A DNA stretch of 64,000 bases from Octopus vulgaris. Taxonomy: Eukaryota. Positions 1 through 36,290 of this stretch are shown here, one piece after another. The notes beneath the pieces were generated by a model. The model was not told the origin of the DNA, made no database searches, and was given only the letters and a program-made list of their open reading frames with translations. The first letter of the stretch is position 1. Every line of letters begins with the position of its first letter. The stretch is taken from NCBI GenBank assembly GCA_951406725.2, contig OX597836.1, positions 25,544,001 through 25,608,000 on the forward strand, written 5' to 3'. A program made the translations under genes and the position numbers.

Positions 1-251
1 CTCCTTGATTCAGCAGTTTTAGAGGAGCATCGAAGTTCCCCAACAAGATGATCGCTATTGGTTTCAAACCTCAAAATAGGAACACTTTATATTTTTATCC
101 AGATGCTTTATTTTTTTCATTCCAGGCATAAAAATTGTGGCTTAGAAACGATCCTGGAGTTAATTACTAGTTCGTTAATATTGTTGTTTCGTTAGTATAC
201 AACCCCATTCAAGGTTATTGCTTTATAATTATTTATTTCCATTCAAGAAAT

Positions 252-535
252 CTGTGGTTCTCAACCGGCGTTCATATGACCTTTAGGGGTCCACATGGCC
301 GTTGGGTGGGGCGTGGTGTCCATACGTGATTTTGTTGTTAAAAATTATGTACAATTAATTAATTGTACTTGTACAATACACGAAATATTTTAACAGGTTT
401 TTTTAATATAATTCCGAACAATATCGAATTATAAAAATATAATAGGATTTTTGGGGCATCAAATGGCTTTGAGGGTCCAGCAGAGTAAAATAGGGAGCAA
501 AGGGCTCCATAGGGGAAAAGGGTTGAGACCCATTG
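252..535. mobile_element. hAT-like MITE
   Basis: TIRs ctgtggttctcaacc (252-266) and ggttgagacccattg (521-535) match the CAGTGGTTCTCAA-type hAT terminus. TSD not preserved. Confidence 0.65.
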
Positions 536-557
536 TCTTAAAGTCCCATACATTTAA

Positions 558-922
558 GTGGCACTTCGTCGGTTACGACGAAGAGGGTTCCGGTTGATCC
601 GATCAACATAACTGCCTGCTCGTCAAATTAACGTGTAAGTGGCTGAGCACTCCACAGACACGTGTACCCTTAACGTAGTTCTCGGGGAGATTCAGCGTGA
701 CACAGAGTGTGACAAGGCTGGCCCTTTGAAATACAGGTACAACAGAAACACGTAGAAAGAGTGAGAGAAAGTTGTGGTGAAAGAGTACAGCAGGGTTCGT
801 CACCACACCCTGCCGGAACCACGTGGAGCATTATGTGTTTTCGCTCAATAAACACGCACAAAGCCCCGTCTGAGAATCGAAACCGCGATCCTATGCCCTA
901 ACCACTGAGCCATTCCGCTTCC
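558..922 (-). mobile_element. SINE family A (tRNA-derived) copy with a variant central segment
   Basis: 3' half is the reverse complement of the 58577-58900 copy; tRNA-like head at about 870-920. Confidence 0.75.
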
Positions 923-1619
923 ACATACATTTAAGTAAGTTACTTAATAACAGGTACATGGTCTTTGGATTTATTGCTCATCTTACATCCTATATAACGC
1001 TACCAATGTGTTTGATTCTTTGGTTGAGACTGTTGAGATTTTTGACAGTATTGTATTTTATTTATGTGGCTTATTTCATTGACCGGACCCACTGGTCTTA
1101 TTACCTTCCGTGTATAACACTGGTGTATATCTAATATTAGTCTTATGTCCTATAGATAACATTGGTGTTATATATAAGCTATAATACGAGTCTTGTGTCT
1201 TGTAACAGCAGCAGTATACAGACTGCTATCGATTGTGTTATTACATCATTTTATGTTATGTCTAACGATGTATCAGATAACTTTCACCAAGGGAATGAGT
1301 AATTTTTTTATGATGTCTATCATACGTGAAAGATGGTCTGTTGTCAAACTATAATTAAATTTGTGTTTATACATTTGATAAGATCAATATTTAATTAGAA
1401 ATCATTACACGGAGAAGGAAAAAAAACAAACAATACTAATTAATTGGTGATGTATATTTTATCATTTGGGTCTTAACATGCGCAGTTCAAATTCGCAGAG
1501 GTTAACTTTACCTTTCATTATTATTTCGATGCTATTAGGCCCCTTCAAGTATTAGGGTCGATGTAATCGAGTACCCTCCTTCCTCTGAAATTACTGTCCC
1601 TTCCCCCACAAAATTATTA

Positions 1620-1838
1620 AGGTGGCCAGTTGGCAGAATTTTGGTGCGTCGGACAAGTTGTTTAGCGGCATTTCTTCCGGCTTTACGTTCTGAGTTCAAA
1701 TTCCGCCGAGGTTGGCTTTGCCTTACATCCTTTAGGGGTCGATCAAAAGTAATAGTCGAGCACTAGGTTTGATGTAATCAAATAACCCACTCCCATCAAG
1801 TATTATTAGGCTTTGTGCCCAAATAAGAAATAATATTA
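1620..1838 (+). mobile_element. SINE family C copy (preceded by a degraded copy at about 1470-1615)
   Basis: Homology to 47373-47611. Confidence 0.7.
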
Positions 1839-2383
1839 TGCATTCTATTTGCACCGTTTTGTTAAGACGAAAGGGCAGCGCCAACGGAATATGGTTTTTA
1901 GGGCGTTCAAGATCAGCAGTAGAAAGAAGGAAAGTTTCTGTTAAAGTGAAGATCTGGCCTTAACATTTTTCTACTAAATGGCGTTTGGTTAAAATATTAA
2001 AATGTGGCATTAAACCGAGCGGTAGATGAAGTCCACTTCTCAACAACTCGTAATAGAAAGATCCCGAACAGATACCACAAAGCACTCACTACATTTCTGT
2101 CAATTCCCCATCCTCGATCTGTGTGTATTTTATCGAACCAGAAAGGAAGAAAGGCGGAGGGATTTGAAAACAGGGTACAGAAAACCGGAACAAATACCAG
2201 AAGATGTTTTGTTCTATACCCTAACAACTCTACCAATTCGCAACATGTTTCAGTCTTATTATGCCCTCTTCCGCAAAGTCGATACTTTCTCGTATTCACT
2301 GAAAAATTATTGTTTAAACATACAAGACTATATCATATATATGTAACCTATGCAGCAAATATAAGATATAAATACAAATGACG

Positions 2384-2488
2384 TTTAAAATTTACGACAG
2401 CTGTTTCGGCAGGATTTTATTTATTTAATGCAATCATAAAAGATTACATAACAATATATAATCCACCATCATCAGGTAAAATTTTAAA
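2384..2488 (-). ncRNA. Type I hammerhead ribozyme motif with intact core and extended stem II
   Basis: Minus strand: UUUAAAAUUUUAC-CUGAUGA-UGGUGGAUU...AAUCCUGCC-GAAA-CAGCUG-UC-GUAAAUUUUAAA. Stem I about 12 bp, full core, palindromic stem III, UC cleavage site. Confidence 0.8.
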
Positions 2489-2534
2489 TATGGCCAATTT
2501 AACAGTTTTTCCGTTGATGGTAAAAAACGACGAA

Positions 2535-2584
2535 CAGCCTTAATCGGTTTTCGAACCTTATTGAGCTCTCATCAGAGGCGTCTG
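2535..2584 (-). ncRNA. Minimal type I hammerhead ribozyme motif with intact core
   Basis: Minus strand: CAGACGCCU-CUGAUGA-GAGCU-CAAUAA-GGUUC-GAAA-ACCGAU-UA-AGGCUG. Stem I GCCU/AGGC, stem II GAGCU/GGUUC. Confidence 0.65.
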
Positions 2585-4524
2585 TATCAATTTAACCAAT
2601 CGCAGAGAAAAAACAGCCAATCTGTTTATATACACAAGTCCACTAGCTTCAGGGAAACGAATCGATTAATTTGCATACTTTTTATCACTTTATTTAATAT
2701 CAGCGATCTGTCAACGGAGATCGCAGTCCATACAGTATCAGGGTATGAGATAATATATATAACTTATATAATAGACATATAAACATAACAAGTTTAACTG
2801 GTTGGTTTAGAGAAACAGAACTGTTTAGAGAATACCGTATAATTACGCCCGGTTCGCTTTTTTAATGCACTCGGCATTAAATATGTTACCGTTAACTTAA
2901 CTATTGTTTGTCATGCAGATGGCGTCTTTGAACTATTTACAATATTTGATTTAGTTTTATTATTTCCATAGGATAGACGCTCTTCTATGAAACAAAGTTT
3001 GTATATTGATGTTGGTTAAGCCTCACCAAACAGCTTTTGCCAGCGATAAAGGTGATAAGGTGATAATATAGGTCAAGCTGGTTGTTTATTTTTCTTTATT
3101 ATGACTATCACACGTGCATATAATACTAGAGACTGATCTTATTTCCCATTCTTCTTTTACATCTTCATACTTATCGACATCAAACTGACCAATTCTGTAT
3201 AACACGTATACATACATGACCACACAAATACATATGCAAGCATAACAAAGCATATGCACACATACACACACAAACGCACACGTACGTATAAAGCCAACAA
3301 ATGAATATATAGACATGAACAAACACATACACGCACATACACACACACGCACGCACACACACATGCAGACATACACACACACATGCACATACATGTTCAA
3401 ATAGCGACATAAAAAACCAAAAATAAAAAGAAACAAAACACCGTCTGAAGCATTCGTTTGTGTTCGGCTTTGTTGGTGTCTTTTGTAGAACTGAGCCATG
3501 ATTCTTTGAGGAATTATTCCACAGACTGAATAATTCAATATCCAAACGCTCCGACATGAACGCCAACGCTATCATCACAACACACACACTACCCATTTCC
3601 CATCATTCCCTCACTTCCGCTCCTTGCAGTTTCTATTGTTGTTATAGTAATTGTTATTCGGTTTTACACGAGAGAATAACTAAACTGTTTTATAGGAGTA
3701 CAGAGTGAGGACTGTTGACTAGAAACATAGGTTATATCTATGTTTATTAGATGTTTAACGAGCGGTGAGCGGAGAACACAAAAGATTGAATGATAAAATG
3801 TTGATTTGTCCGAGGATTTCTGAACGACATTTTATATTTTCTCAATTCAAATATGGCCGCCATTAAGTTTACCTTTCCGGGATGAAGCTCGGCATACAGT
3901 TAAGCACACACGCCTTATCTCTCATTAAAATGTTCTAAGCGCCATTGTTGGAAATCATCAATATCATCAAATACTGTGTAAAGGTGGTGAGATGGCAGGA
4001 TCATTAACACACCGGACAAAATGCTTCGTGGCATTTCGTTCACCTTCACCTTTCTGAGTTCAAATTTCGCCGCGTTATCATAGATGTATGTAGACACAAT
4101 AAGTTTCACTTCAAATGTGGATGTAAACAGTAAAGGTGTATGTATATTTATTACTAGCAATAGATGAATCGCGTCTTCCATAACATATATGGAATACTTA
4201 GTATATTTCCAAAGAAGACACTGGAAACTTAATGAACAAAGAACAAGAAGCAAATGTTGCAATTAGAGGATAAAATTGACATTTTGAAAAATAATTATTG
4301 GTTTTTCTCAAATGAGTTAAAATAGATTAAAAATCCAAAATATAATTAGGGTATGGAATATCAACTGAAAAAATGGTGCTTCGTTCCAGATATTGTGAAT
4401 AAACTTTACTTTGTATTTGGTGACATATAACACACAATTCCACGAGAAAATATGACCTTTGCCAAAATCATTTATTTCTATGCAATATGTTTATATTTCA
4501 CTTAGTATGATACACATACATACG

Positions 4525-4588
<64 letters not shown>

Positions 4589-4655
4589 CATACTCGCGCA
4601 CACACATATATATATACACACTTTCTCTCCCTCTCCCTCTTTCTCTGTCTCTCTG

Positions 4656-4711
<56 letters not shown>

Positions 4712-4917
4712 CATAAATATATGTATATGTATATATATATATATACAATAAAGTACAAAATATGACAAGAACGCAAAACATCCGGACAACTAGATGATAC
4801 AAAAAGGGACAACAAAACATCCAGATAGACGATACAAAAAAAACAAGGACGGGTCATTCGAAGCCTTATATCTTCAGTCAAGAACCGGATTATCCTCGCA
4901 ATTTCGGCTGATATATG

Positions 4918-4953
<36 letters not shown>

Positions 4954-4964
4954 TACATATATAT

Positions 4965-5160
4965 GTTTGTGTATCTGTGCTTGTCCCACCAGCCATCGCT
5001 TGGCAAGCGATGCAGGCGTGTTTACGCCCCCGTAACTTAGTGGTTCGTCAAAAGTGACCGATAGACTAAGAATAAGTCCTGGGGTCAATTTGTTCGACTA
5101 AAGGCGGTGCTCCAGCATGGCCGCAGTCAAATGACTGAAACAAGTAAACGAATAAAAGAC
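4965..5160 (+). mobile_element. SINE family B, 3' half
   Basis: Contains 'gactaaaggcggtgctccagcatggccgcagtcaaatgactgaaacaagtaa'. Similar half copies at 35225-35450 (tail) and 33765-33915 (head). Confidence 0.75.
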
Positions 5161-5397
5161 TACACATGTATATATATATATATGAAACATTAAAATAGAC
5201 AATGACATGCCATGTTACATGAATCTGCCAATTTAATGTATCTTAAAGCATGGAACTAATTGTAGCATATTTTGTAATTGAGTGTGTGACATATGATATT
5301 TATCTCTCACTGGATGGGGTACTTTTCTGTTGATCCTATCTATATGCGAACAGTAAACTATACATATATGCATATATATATATATGGATATAATATG

Positions 5398-5435
<38 letters not shown>

Positions 5436-6806
5436 CACACACACACATATATGTATACAATATGTATGTAGAATATAAATGTGTTTGTACTGTGGAATAT
5501 TTTTAGTTTTAAATAAATCCAGTCTACTTTGAAGATTCCACTTTGAATGAAAAGTTAAATTTTGAAATGTATTGAAAAATTATTTTTACAATATCTGAAA
5601 TATCTGAGACACTTGATAAATTCTATAATCAGGAATTGGTTTATGCCACTCTTCACTTTGTGTGGTTTTTCTTTGCTGATCATAATTTGAAATATTGTGG
5701 CTGATTTTAGTGACTGTTTTTTTTCTTTCGTTATTGAAATTACATTTAAACTACTTTTTCTTCGTTTACAATATTTCTGCTGAATTTACGACTCATATGC
5801 AAAAGTTTGAGACATTGTTCGACTTTTTGAAGATAAAAAACAGTTTATACAATTCCTACATGCCACATATATCTCCGTCAGATTGCATTGGTCAAACGAC
5901 ATTTTCCTAAAATATAGAGAGATGTCTTCACTCTTGCAAGTCTGTTAAAACGTCTGTTATTGGTCTCAAGCGATTTTGATTAATTTATGTGGTGCAAAAA
6001 GTTATTTACAAAGAACGGAGAAAAAAAGAGAAGAGGTATTTGACAATATTTTATACGACATCAGTATGTCGAATCCTGTTTAATATTTTTCGAAATATAA
6101 TCTTCTGAAACTATTAGTAAATATGGAAAAAAAATATAGCTTCTCGTATTTCTAATAAAGTGACAAGGAAAAATATTGGCACCTCGAAAATTCAGTAGTT
6201 CTAGAAAAATTGTACGATACTAACAGGAATACAGTACTATTGCACGCGAGGAAAATAAATTTAATAATAAAAGTATTAGCAGAAGATTGTTTCACTTTGT
6301 GAGTATTTGAAATGTTGCTGTTTGAAGTTGTAAAAACGACAGTAAACAAAATATATTTAGTACCTTTTCACGTTTAGTTTATGTACAAAGTATTGTGTTA
6401 GGTTATAGAGCTTTAGAATTAGTTAGCTGCAAACTAAGAGTTAGTACAGCTGCAAAACGTGTTCATCATATATGTTTGGAGGAACACACACACACAGACT
6501 TAAACCAACCCATTCACAAACACATACCTATCCAAATTTCTGTGTATCATGCTTAAAGCAAACACATACGCTGAAAGCATGAAACCTCCGGTATTCGTCT
6601 CGAGGAAATATCGCATAGAGACGTATAGTGTCAAAAACACAGAAGTATAAGAGAGTTTATCAGCCGCTAGAACTTTCTGTCTGTTACTCATATATTTCTG
6701 TCGGATTTTTAAAACTTTGTACGAGATACTTTCTCCAGATGAATACCGCAGCTCAGAAGGCTTTCAACAACGTATATGCATTAAGTATCATATATGTATA
6801 TATATG

Positions 6807-6891
<85 letters not shown>

Positions 6892-7010
6892 GTGTGTGTC
6901 TGTGTATAGCATCGCATTTACTGTAGGTAGTAGGTACTTGTAACTTTTTAACATGTACTGTTTGTAGTATAATTATTTATTGGTTCCTTTTATTAAACAC
7001 AACCACCCAC

Positions 7011-7076
<66 letters not shown>

Positions 7077-7144
7077 ATATACATATATACAAACACAAAC
7101 ATATATACATACATACATTTACACAGAAACACACATACATAGCT

Positions 7145-7312
7145 GAAATTTACAGAAAAACAAAAGACGAAGACAAGTGTATGAACACCAAACAGGTGTA
7201 TTAGTTTGACGCTCGAGAAAGTGAGGAAGTCTTTATATTTAGAGTCTATGCTCTTCAATAGAAAGGAATAAGAGAAAATAAACAGAGGAAGAATAAAAAA
7301 ATAACTTGTGGA
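7145..7312. repeat. Interspersed family F; second copy at 63301-63505
   Basis: Shared 'ttagttt.acgctcg.ga..gtg...agtcttta...gctctt..a.agaaaggaa'. Confidence 0.6.
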
Positions 7313-7313
7313 C

Positions 7314-7355
<42 letters not shown>

Positions 7356-7797
7356 TAAATGAAAGAATGGAGTCGAACGAAGATGTTAACAAAATTCCTT
7401 CACTCTCGAATTTTCCATGCTGACGATAAACATAGGATAATTCATTCACCTACTTATATATATATATATATACATAGATATCATTACTATTATGTTAAAC
7501 TGTCGTATATCCAACTTTGGCCAAATATGTTTTTTCCAATATCTATTTTTGCTTGCAATACCCAGATCTTTTGGTCAAATTATCACATCTTCAGCTGCCT
7601 CAGATACCAATATACCAAAATTGACAAAATGTAGTATAACGATTTTGCTATGGAATGGTGAAACTATTTTTTCGCTTTCTAAAAAAAAAAAAAAAAGCGT
7701 TTTGGACTTACGACACCTTTGCAAAATAGCAACGATATATATATATATATATATAAATAAGCATCTCTCTTTCTCTTTTTCTACATACATACATACA

Positions 7798-7948
<151 letters not shown>

Positions 7949-8407
7949 GTATGTATGTATGTATATATATTATATATGTGCGACTACAACCAATACTGGT
8001 GAATATTGACAGTTTCTCCGTTGCATAAAGTCGCATGACTCAGCAGTCTTCGATGCATTTTGCAATGACGGAATAGCAAATTCACTAGTGTTCGCGTCAG
8101 CCAATGAAATTATGGGTGCGCACGCTCACGCACACACGCACACGCACGCACGCACGCGCGTGTGTGCGAGCCTGGAAATGTTTTTTCTTATTCAGTTAGT
8201 CTATATACTATATTAAGTTATAAAGCTGTGAATGCAGTTTGTTGCGAATTCCTATAGATTTATTGCTAGAAAATGTATTCCTAATATATCTTTATAGATA
8301 ATTACATATATTATATACCTGCTTGAGTGAACGTACACATACAGACAGACAGACTGATACACACACACATACACACGCATATACATATATTTATACACAC
8401 ACACACG

Positions 8408-8512
<105 letters not shown>

Positions 8513-9369
8513 GCATTTTGTGTGTGTGTGTGTGTATAAGACCATTGAACTGTTTACATCGATGTTGCTCTCTATAGAAAAATGATAATTGTAGAAATAT
8601 CTGAAGAAAGATAGATAATGAATATATGTGCTGTTCGAAAATACTTAACCCAAATAAATATCTGATGGGGAAAAAAGAAAAAAGAGAAAAGAAGGAAGGA
8701 AACAGCAATAACAACAACACCAGCGACAAGAATAAGAATTCGGTTTCATTAAGAGAACGACAAACGAAAGTTTCTGAAGCAGTTCTTTTCATTAATAATA
8801 ACCACACTTCTGTTGATATGAACAAAAATTGAAACAATATCGCATGATTCGTCGCCAATTCAATTGTCTCCCTCCATAACAAGACGCCATGATGTCTACG
8901 CATTATGTTTAAACGACGTAATGACGTTCTATTTATCTCTCCAGGAATTTGCTTTGGAACTGCTGTTTATGGCTATCGTGAGCCGTTACCTAGACTAAAT
9001 AAAGTAGGATCTTTTATTTTCAATGAATTTATTTTCTTCTTTCATCAAAACTAGCAAGTTATCGGCCGACCTAATAACACACCACTTGAAAACAATGGGA
9101 TTTACTTTCATACAGTCAATAGTATTCATCAGTTTAATAAATTTGTCTATGGATATATTAGATGTAATCACACTGTTTTTATTGAAGTTATTAGTGGCTC
9201 TTGTTGTAGCAATGGTTTATTTGATTGCTTTCTTTTTAAATGATATATTAGCCTCGAAATCTGACCTTATACCTCTCTTAGAAATCAATATGTAATTCAA
9301 AAGTGCATTTATGAGTATACACCCGATCTTCACTATTTTCGCCTTTGTTAGTCAGAAGATATATTCAGA

Positions 9370-9690
9370 GGATAGTGTCCATGTCAGTTACAAGCAATCC
9401 TAGAATGGTGAGAATAATGCGGTCGATGTTCAGGTTGAATATCTGGGGATAACGAGTGGAGGAACTTGACTTGTCTGGGGAGTTCCAGAGGGCTGCAATC
9501 TAAAAATGCAGGATGGAGTGAACTGCTTAAAGTAGAGCCTGGGCGTTAAGATCAAGAAAGTGGGATGAGAAGATGTGTGGATTAAGCATTAAGCTAATTC
9601 CGAGAAACAGAAGCCGTCGCAGGAATGCAAGAAGAGATAAATTCATGAAAACAGCATTCTACCTCCATCAATTGGCCTCTAAACTCTAAG
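9370..9690 (-). mobile_element. 3' end remnant of a CR1/L2-group LINE; related end at about 44700-44890
   Basis: ALWNSP motif and NIDRI/NINRID C-terminus. 'aatgcggt(c/t)gatgtt' is shared by both copies. Confidence 0.4.
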
Positions 9691-29764: not shown

Positions 29765-30327
29765 AATCTTTCTACGATAGGCACAAGGCCCGAAATTCTG
29801 GGGGTGGGACCCGTCGATTAGATTGACACCAGTACGTAATTTGGATGAAGGATGAAAGGCAAAGGCGAGCTCGGTGGCATTTGAACTCAGGACGTAGCGG
29901 CAGACGAAATACCTATTTCTTTACTAGCCACAAGGGGCTAAATACAGAGAGGGCAAACAGGGACAGACAAACGGATTAAGTCGATTATATCGACCCCAGT
30001 GCGTAACTGGTACTTATTTAATCGACCCAGAAAGGATGAAAGGCAAAGTCAACCTCGGAAGAATTTGAATTCAGAACGTAAAGACGGACATAATACGTAT
30101 TTCTTTACTGCCCACAAGGGGCTAAACACAGAGAGGGCAAACAAGGACAGACAAACGGATTAAGTCGATTATATCAACCCCAGTGCGTAACTGGTACTTA
30201 TTTAATCGACCCGGAAAGGATGAAAGGCAAAGTCGACCTCGGCGGAATTTGAACTCAGAGCGTAACAGCAGACGAAATACGGCTACGCATTCCGCCCGGC
30301 GTGCTAACGTTTCTGCCAACTCGCCGC
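29765..30327 (-). mobile_element. SINE family C concatemer (one head plus three bodies)
   Basis: Repeated body units of roughly 190 bp joined at 'aaagaaata(g/c)gtatt'. The last unit has a different 3' tail. Confidence 0.8.
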
Positions 30328-33712: not shown

Positions 33713-33914
33713 GTGTGTGTGTGTGAGAGTGAGAGAGAGAGAAAGAGAGAGATTGTGTGTGTGACTGTCGTAAGAACTTTGCTCCCTAACCACATGGTTC
33801 CGGTTTCTGTTCCACTGCGTGGCACCTTGGATAAGTATCTTCTGCCACAGCTTCGGGCCGACTGAAGCCTTGTGAGTGGATTTGCTAAACGGTAACTGAA
33901 AGAATCCTATCTAA

Positions 33915-33959
<45 letters not shown>

Positions 33960-34446: not shown

Positions 34447-35173
<727 letters not shown>

Positions 35174-35874
35174 AGTGTGTGTGTGTGTGTGTGAGTGTGT
35201 GTATACTAATACGTGTGTGTGTGTATGTGTGTGCCTTTGTGTCTATATTTGTCCCCCCCACCGCCGCTCGACAAATGGTGTTCGTTTGTTTACGTCCCCG
35301 TCATATAACAGTTCGCAAAAAAAACCCAAAGAAAAACAGACGGATAAAAAGGTTTTAAAAATAAGTACTGGAGTCGATTCATTCGACTGAAAAACCGTTG
35401 GAGGCGGTGCCCCAGCGTGGCCGCATCTAAACAACTAAGACTATTAAAAGATATATAAACAGGTGTTGTTATTTAAATGAAAGCCATTATCAACTGTTGA
35501 ATAGAATAGTCTGATTGAAACGAGGTAAAGTTTACACGAAACCTATCTTGTCAGAGTACAAAGGAAGTCTATTGTGTCATACTTTATATTAAATATAAAG
35601 AAATTAATCTAAAAAAGTTGCGATATAACCAGACTATTGGGAATTGTAAAGAACTTTGGTAAATAACGCCTAATAAGATACCAGCGCTACACTAATAGCA
35701 TAGAAAAAGAAAATATAATCTGAGGTTTTATGGAAGAAAAAAATTCCGATAAAGTAAACGGTGTAGAGAAATTGGTGTTGGATAATTGAAGGCGTAATGG
35801 AGAGACAAACGGAATTACTTAATGATGATGTTTACTGTGAAGATTTGTTTTTCTTACATGCACACATACACATA

Positions 35875-36290
35875 CCTATTTCTTTACTACTCACAAGGGG
35901 CTAAACACAGAGGGGACAAACAAGGACAGACATAGGTATTAAGTCGATTACATCGACCCCAGTGCGTAACTGGTACTTAATTTATCGACCCCGAAAGGAT
36001 GAAAGGCAAAGTCGACCTCGGCGGAATTTGAACTCAGAACGTAACGCCAGACGAAATACCTATTTCTTTACTACCCACTATGGGCTATACACAGAGGGGA
36101 CAAACAAGGACAGACATAGGTATTAAGTCGATTACATCGAACCCAGTGCGTAACTGGTACTTAATTTATCGACCCCGAAAGGATGAAAGGCAAAGTCGAC
36201 CTCGGCGGAATTTGAACTCACAACGTAACGGCAGACAAAATACCGCTAAGCATTTCGCCCGGCGTGCTAACATTTCTGCCAGCTCGTCGC
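35875..36290 (-). mobile_element. SINE family C dimer (one head plus two bodies)
   Basis: Near-identical ~183-bp units at 35875-36057 and 36058-36240, followed by a single head. Confidence 0.85.

Follow-up and report, generated by a model that had tools for sequence, protein, structure and literature searches.

The question raised by this locus is whether two different hammerhead motifs, lying one behind the other on the minus strand, form a single unit built to excise a small RNA or are neighbours of separate origin. A preliminary description of the window (the whole 64-kb stretch of DNA that was analysed) had proposed an intact pair that releases positions 2396-2540. We consider it reasonably probable that the locus is instead an old composite of two Penelope-derived families, now adjacent and drifting neutrally. 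The features on which the discussion draws are the following.

2337..2383, minus strand: sequence 3' of HH2 that belongs to its family (depth is raised here; paralogous pieces stop at 2360-2384)
2384..2488, minus strand: HH2, a type I hammerhead (sequence, folding, descriptor)
2396..2540, minus strand: 145 nt from one predicted cut to the other (folding predicts a compact structure with adjacent ends)
2489..2540, minus strand: 3' strand of HH1 stem I, U6 tract (2527-2522) and 33-nt extension (2521-2489) (contigs, inverted repeat)
2534..2585, minus strand: HH1, a minimal type I hammerhead (sequence, descriptor, contigs of three relatives)
2586..2800, minus strand: part of the HH1 unit upstream of the hammerhead, including a conserved block at ~2686-2773 (joints in three relatives)
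2862..2949, strand not given: extra multi-copy block adjoining the HH1 unit (depth 146-690 versus 5-11 in the flanks)

Sequence and scripts bear out the two co-oriented minus-strand motifs with CUGAUGA, GAAA, UH and paired stems, the predicted cuts at 2541/2540 and 2396/2395 and the 145 nt between them. In HH1 the core CUGAUGA (2575-2569) is followed by a stem II of 5 bp (2568-2564/2557-2553) with a G10.1-C11.1 pair, by GAAA (2552-2549), by the stem III stretch AACCGAUU (2549-2542) and by A17 at 2541, where the cut is predicted after UUA; stem I has 4 contiguous bp and about 3 past a bulge. In HH2 the core CUGAUGA (2475-2469) is followed by one extra U after A9, at 2468, by a 60-nt hairpin as stem II (2467-2408), by GAAA (2407-2404), by the perfect palindrome ACAGCUGU as helix III (2404-2397) and by C17 at 2396 (GUC); its stem I has about 12 bp with one bulge. 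Stem II of HH2 had been described as long and branched; it is long, and folding predicts one bulged hairpin rather than a branched structure. Self-comparison of the window agrees with the earlier statement that the two motifs are not repeats of each other. Both have the type I arrangement (CUGAnGA, GAAA and UH, with helices I and II placed as in type I), and every consensus base is present in both catalytic cores. To this extent the pair is intact, as had been claimed, but stem III of HH1 is not: its palindrome is imperfect in the window copy, with a predicted self-duplex of -1.3 kcal/mol, versus -6.1 for the palindrome of the HH1 family and -11.1 for HH2. Minimal hammerheads of PLEs are characterised by a palindromic helix III, a G10.1-C11.1 pair and a base between 9 and 10.1 (PMC4209133, available in part); HH2 shows all three traits, and HH1 shares the G10.1-C11.1 pair and has no such extra base.

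A strict descriptor, composed after the two motifs had been seen, finds exactly two places in the 64 kb, HH1 and HH2, and gave 1 match in 300 locally resampled 64-kb windows. Rfam covariance models, which had been suggested as a check, returned nothing, with 0 matches in the whole window at the gathering score and 0 in 2200-2800 at E up to 10. No further copy of either motif was found within the window, the other matches being to a SINE-like 30-mer at 2126-2155. A site at 9132 from the first loose motif scan, which missed HH2 through its extra U, proved spurious. An apparent antisense hammerhead in the spacer is the mirror of the pairing between spacer and HH2, and the descriptor gives 0 plus-strand matches. 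In metagenomes the long-stem pattern of HH2 gave 0 matches. The HH1-type pattern was found in 1 viral and 94 metagenome stretches, and 1/95 of these loci (L023) passed the descriptor; blastn of the 95 loci against 2300-3000 gave no match at E 1e-3. L023, at ~1495-1550 (minus) of a metagenome contig, is a clean minimal hammerhead with HH1 architecture, a perfect 8-nt palindrome and a UUA cut, and its sequence is unrelated to HH1. Another locus (L001) was rejected as a chance match. In viral contigs the HH2-type pattern gave one match, an unrelated hammerhead-like motif with a long helix III at 828-890 (plus) of contig L096, recognised by eye only.

Contigs of relatives are a better test of the motifs than the Rfam models. 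Part of the stretch is present in 20 of 24 runs, from 11 studies and under six organism labels. Contigs were aligned at 80% likeness, below which copies are invisible to the comparison; they numbered 592 in X9 (organism D), 561 in X10 (E), 793 in X16 (F) and 13 in X19 (E), the last being RNA by guess only. Depth is 5-11 in the unique flanks; it has one rise over HH1 and another over HH2, with a trough of 14-25 at 2505 in the spacer. Relative to the flank, summed depth is 380-655x over HH1, 100-140x over HH2 and 2-3x at spacer position 2505, ratios that give a rough scale and no copy number (distinct contigs at 2547 number 75-89 per run). On the earlier point of copy number, each motif is multi-copy in the contigs of three relatives.

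In those relatives the HH1 family has a perfect palindrome, AAUCGAUU: the letter at 2547 that completes it makes up 94-97% of depth and is carried by 84, 75 and 89 contigs. Position 2566 gives an A-U pair in about 90% of family depth, versus G-U in the window copy. The variation at these two positions is consistent with the structure, and both best-supported family differences, from 40 of 176 difference rows (the window letter in orthologues is not among the 40), improve the ribozyme structure as judged from sequence. The earlier assignment to Penelope-type minimal hammerheads with a palindromic helix III agrees with HH2 and, at the family level, with HH1.

The HH1 unit can be traced through joints in the relatives' contigs, each of which rests on one contig. 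Seven joints connect the HH1 side (2555-2637) in order to 2679-2726, and go-back joints (2762, 2797 and 2800 to 2522/2532; 2785 to 2564, the latter in two runs) define tandem units of ~275-300 nt with HH1 and without HH2. A retrozyme is recognised by two or more successive units that carry one and the same hammerhead; this is seen among HH1 paralogues elsewhere and is lacking here, where no tandem repeat over the locus is found among the first 150 of 171 rows in order of position and no direct self-match covers it. The edge of the conserved block is sharp at 2522, with loose ends in 37, 21 and 38 contigs of the three relatives, and the tandem joints end at 2522 or continue to about 2503. The loose ends behind 2522 resemble 2492-2521 by eye only, with an agreement of about 0.5. 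By analogy, the 33-nt extension of HH1 may be the optional 30-40 bp tail of Penelope elements, which have also been described to nick AT-rich DNA in the pLTR (PMC11167929). A second AAUCGAUU, identical to the helix III palindrome of the HH1 family, occurs at 2667-2660 (minus), ~120 nt upstream of HH1, and 2657-2639 (minus) resembles the 5' core strand of HH2 (79% over 19 nt). A third hammerhead around 2667-2660 was rejected (broken core, no stem I, low depth in relatives), and this site is possibly a decayed older hammerhead. The block at 2862-2949 has no joint to HH1 or HH2 among the joints listed (22 of 28) and may be part of the HH1 family, of the HH2 family or of a third repeat.

The HH2 family is represented by at least 15 paralogous pieces in three DNA-type runs, which span 2360-2384 to 2479-2488. 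Three opposite-strand joints within it (2407, 2416 and 2419 to 2487, 2488 and 2473, respectively) would fit an inverted 5'-truncated copy that abuts the beginning of another, and inverted 5'-truncated copies are reported for PLEs (10.1101/2021.04.23.441226, available in part). Loose ends behind 2488 (29, 35 and 54 contigs in three runs) start with letters that repeat 2473-2488; this may be a tool artefact, a short family duplication or the inverted partner. On the plus strand these letters read as a splice donor close to the consensus. A9, the extra U and G10.1 of HH2 spell AUG, which opens just 11 codons (2469-2434, minus).

In the contigs compared, copies of HH1 and of HH2 do not as a rule occur as a pair, because no listed piece beyond presumed orthologues and no listed joint spans the spacer. 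At least 112 letters, sufficient to accommodate HH1, lie on the HH1 side in 12 of the 15 listed HH2-paralogue pieces, and at least 111 on the HH2 side in both listed HH1-paralogue pieces (2/2), the orientation of minus-strand records being taken from X19 record 18. Presumed orthologues aside, crossing of 2488-2522 by paralogues is not seen among the pieces listed (there are 2006 others), nor is a link of ~2488 to 2522-2540 among the joints listed (22 of 28). Three joints do place the 3' flank of HH2 near HH1-side sequence, namely 2350 to 2567 (X10, a side of 22 letters), 2364 to 2607 (X16, 24 letters) and 2737 to 2337 (X9, with 16 letters between); sides of less than 30 letters in AT-rich DNA are often spurious. 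There are 1-2 extra contigs per run over spacer position 2505, and contigs break at repeats. In X19, one contig extends over 2292-2527, and so past the cut site of HH2, with ~9 further letters, and stops near the HH1 cut, and two paralogous contigs start at 2522 with no joint among those listed; contigs of this kind, from one study, cannot show RNA ends, strand or level.

The unique flank runs into the motifs in X9 records 25-26, X10 record 6, X16 records 9, 15 and 16 and X19 record 17. Because these long pieces show flank continuity, the same locus is recognised in D, E and F, and the pair probably predates their split. Orthologous pieces that contain a hammerhead differ from the window at 19/500, 31/502, 15/236 and 11/159 sites, and other orthologous pieces at 14/461, 7/166 (for both E comparisons) and 67/1134. 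The substitution rates are 3.8, 6.2, 6.4 and 6.9% in the hammerhead pieces and 3.0, 4.2, 4.2 and 5.9% in the others (Fisher p 0.38-0.60), in a comparison whose pieces are wider than the cores and which has little power for ~30 core bases. By this coarse sequence test, the locus diverges like its flanks and gives no sign of purifying selection.

The 145-nt stretch itself is predicted to fold well, with z -4.23 as a linear molecule (0/200 shuffles) and -31.6 kcal/mol, z -4.30, as a circle (0/300); the lowest z among 80 background windows was -3.76 in the circular comparison (120 windows were drawn and 40 dropped as microsatellite). Most of this z-score comes from HH2's own stem II. An inverted repeat at 2465-2521 (76% over 58 nt) is present, and the first 52 nt of the 145-mer are predicted to pair with both core strands of HH2. 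With HH2 held fixed, the spacer pairing was reached by 35/1000 shuffles and 23/1000 random window 52-mers, and the total energy by 17/1000 shuffles and 61/1000 random 52-mers, so that the predicted specificity is modest (p ~0.02-0.035), suggestive and not strong. A change at 2519 in relatives keeps the spacer-HH2 pair as G-U. The U tract of the spacer also forms a hairpin with GGAAAAA. The pairing probability of HH2 stem I is 0.62 for HH2 by itself and 0.001-0.07 in context, that of HH1 is 0.001 or less, and forcing both active folds in context costs 12.2 kcal/mol, in folding models without tertiary contacts, dimers or proteins. The fold that closes the 145-mer is thus predicted to block both ribozymes and to work against excision. 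HH1 and HH2 are unable to dimerise with each other through stem III (calculated hetero duplex +1.2 kcal/mol), so HH1 would depend on a partner from the HH1 family and HH2 on one from the HH2 family. For HH2, the minimum free energy structure of the homodimer is the double-hammerhead fold in silico (-55.3 versus 2 x -23.6 kcal/mol). With no joining piece or joint listed, incompatible stems III and cores predicted to be sequestered, the proposal of a single unit built to release 2396-2540 is not supported; the 145-nt RNA is probably a by-product, not something that the cell is built to make.

The composite would have arisen from two multi-copy hammerhead repeats, likely non-coding PLE end-pieces, that became neighbours through insertion of one against the other, at a time before the related lineages diverged, and that have decayed neutrally since. 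A PLE endonuclease nick in AT-rich DNA at the start of HH2 (junction 2489/2488, inside ...AUAUUUAAAA...), with reverse transcription from the end of the 33-nt tail of HH1, would put ~2800-2489 directly before HH2; the reverse order of insertions would fit too. Insertion of a PLE next to existing copies has been described (PMC6765202, available in part). No target-site duplication was found at the locus, where the matches are AT-rich and of 6-8 nt. RT and GIY-YIG gave 0 matches in 86 window ORFs (62 of the 99 of at least 45 aa in 1-9500 and 24 of the 51 of at least 120 aa elsewhere). Each ribozyme would cut only as an own-family homodimer, held together by the palindrome of helix III. Because the HH1 palindrome is lost here and the 52 nt upstream are predicted to lock HH2, double cuts that free the 145-mer would be rare, and activity at the locus would accordingly be expected to be low. 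The ends of any 145-mer released would be a 5'-OH and a 2',3'-cyclic phosphate, closable by an RtcB-type ligase, which is established chemistry (PMC7229834, available in part).

Several other explanations need to be weighed against the composite. Both hammerheads might be present by design, as a worn ancestral pLTR or retrozyme subfamily of ~460 nt (2800-2337) whose HH1-only and HH2-only copies are derivatives and in which the spacer came, by evolution, to hold HH2 locked and to shut the 145 nt into a circle. Elsewhere the spacer belongs to the HH1 family, yet it is predicted to pair with both core strands of HH2; at -4.3 the circular z is lower than in any of the 80 background windows; retrozyme circles are as a rule self-paired (PMC7229834, from the part available); and three joints bring the HH2 3' flank near HH1-side sequence. 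However, two of those three joints have sides below 30 letters in AT-rich DNA, the z-score derives mostly from HH2 stem II, the share of the spacer amounts to p ~0.02-0.035 with an energy matched by 61/1000 52-mers, and no listed paralogous piece or joint carries both motifs in window order. We therefore regard such an ancestor as unlikely, if worth keeping in mind. Whatever its origin, the locus could also work as a two-ribozyme excision cassette, in which read-through transcripts would be cut twice, in trans-dimers with family transcripts or with the help of a protein, and the 145-mer circularised by ligation. The complete cores, the adjacent ends in the predicted fold, the persistence of the locus in four lineages and the protein assistance of one PLE hammerhead (PMC11167929) speak for it. 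Against it are a divergence equal to that of the flanks, an HH1 without the palindrome that 94-97% of its family carries and a cost of ~12 kcal/mol for both active folds in context (in a model without dimer or tertiary terms). PLE minimal hammerheads, moreover, are poor cleavers in vitro even as dimers (PMC4209133, available in part), and 8/9 frog retrozyme dimers gave no cleavage (10.64898/2026.07.22.740005, available in part). A working cassette is improbable on this evidence. It is similarly doubtful that a natural animal circularisation cassette exists here in which the 52-nt lock holds the ends for ligation and the circle cannot re-cut; such a circle would be smaller than the reported animal retrozyme circles, would arise without a tandem repeat and would be kept at one locus or in a small subfamily in several species.

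The HH1 unit might alternatively be a Pol III SINE-like repeat, with transcription ending in the U6 tract (2527-2522), short of HH2. An A-box-like motif at 2598, GGTTCGA at 2557 and T6 at 2527-2522 (minus) lie in tRNA-gene geometry, by motif patterns that we take to be those of Pol III A and B boxes; the arrangement is the sole one of its kind in the window, and the conserved block ends at 2522. Hammerhead SINEs of Schistosoma are apparently Pol III transcribed (PMC6765202, in the part available). The pattern was, however, fitted after the fact; the B-box is incomplete (0 full-pattern matches) and overlaps the CGAAA that the ribozyme needs anyway, the A-box is not kept in paralogue loose ends by eye, the U tract has the alternative hairpin with GGAAAAA, and ARAGORN finds no tRNA in the window. 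We consider this reading quite improbable. That chance produced one motif, or both, in AT-rich DNA is hardly credible at all. This would agree with the lack of an Rfam match and with HH1 alone folding no better than shuffles (z -0.45), but the descriptor matched once in 300 resampled windows, both best-supported differences of the HH1 family improve the predicted ribozyme structure, and contigs from relatives stack up in their hundreds at precisely these two motifs; the pile-up in relatives refutes chance.

The window is AT-rich and laden with microsatellites. SINE-like repeats, similar in look to those of Octopus, are present, among them a 184-nt unit in 2.0-2.4 tandem copies at 29848-30280 and 35872-36244, with more dispersed copies in both orientations. 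An inverted repeat of 201 nt (33723-33923 / 34695-34895; 99% complementary, 771 nt apart) is a SINE-like piece adjoining microsatellites and is either a recent inversion or an assembly artefact. A bacterial promoter scan gave results at chance level and is not relevant here.

If the composite is the right reading, two hammerhead-bearing repeat families, missed by Rfam, are added in an invertebrate lineage, likely an octopus, and the difference at 2547 between family and window copy offers natural confirmation that the helix III palindrome matters. If the cassette were true, nested retroelement remnants could create a new small circular RNA gene, which would provide a way, open to testing, for selfish ribozymes to become host RNAs. 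The literature covered, with most subscription journals and Repbase-type libraries outside the search, holds no description of these families or of a co-oriented pair of unlike minimal hammerheads; numerous families are catalogued in the supplements of PMC4209133 and PMC7229834, and HH1 and HH2 could be among them.

Among known systems, the short hammerhead repeats of Schistosoma, the SM-alpha SINEs, likewise occur as solo and tandem copies (PMC6765202 and PMC8490949, both available in part), whereas a Pol III promoter in HH1 is only hinted at. Non-LTR retrozymes, as far as the available parts of PMC7229834 and 10.64898/2026.07.22.740005 describe them, resemble the HH1 unit, which is low in GC, non-coding, ~275-300 nt long and tandem in relatives; solo copies are common, and a self-paired product of similar size is predicted. 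Unlike them, this locus is no tandem of one unit, its two hammerheads differ, and its 145 nt, a predicted product only, fall short of the 170-400 nt of the circles reported there. In the Poseidon PLE of Anolis (PAc; PMC11167929) the hammerhead is followed by an A/C-rich stem-loop, an optional tail of 30-40 bp and an AT-rich junction, an order to which the present locus is similar, and the AUG at the start of HH2 stem II recalls the start codon of PAc; the AUG of HH2 opens just 11 codons, however, and the tail lies 19-52 nt past the cut, closer than in PAc. For the minimal hammerheads of PLEs, the tandems described are of one family with ~3 kb between members, and the close pairs lie on opposite strands (PMC4209133, available in part), whereas unlike, co-oriented motifs lie 145 nt apart here, and no PLE ORF is tied to HH1 or HH2 among the 86 window ORFs. 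The same source, in the part available, agrees with our motifs in type I topology, conserved core, G10.1-C11.1 pair and palindromic helix III, in the extra base and large helix II of HH2, and in mostly dispersed copies without an ORF. Judged by sequence and predicted structure, the locus would work like the minimal hammerheads of PLEs, whose distinguishing features it has.
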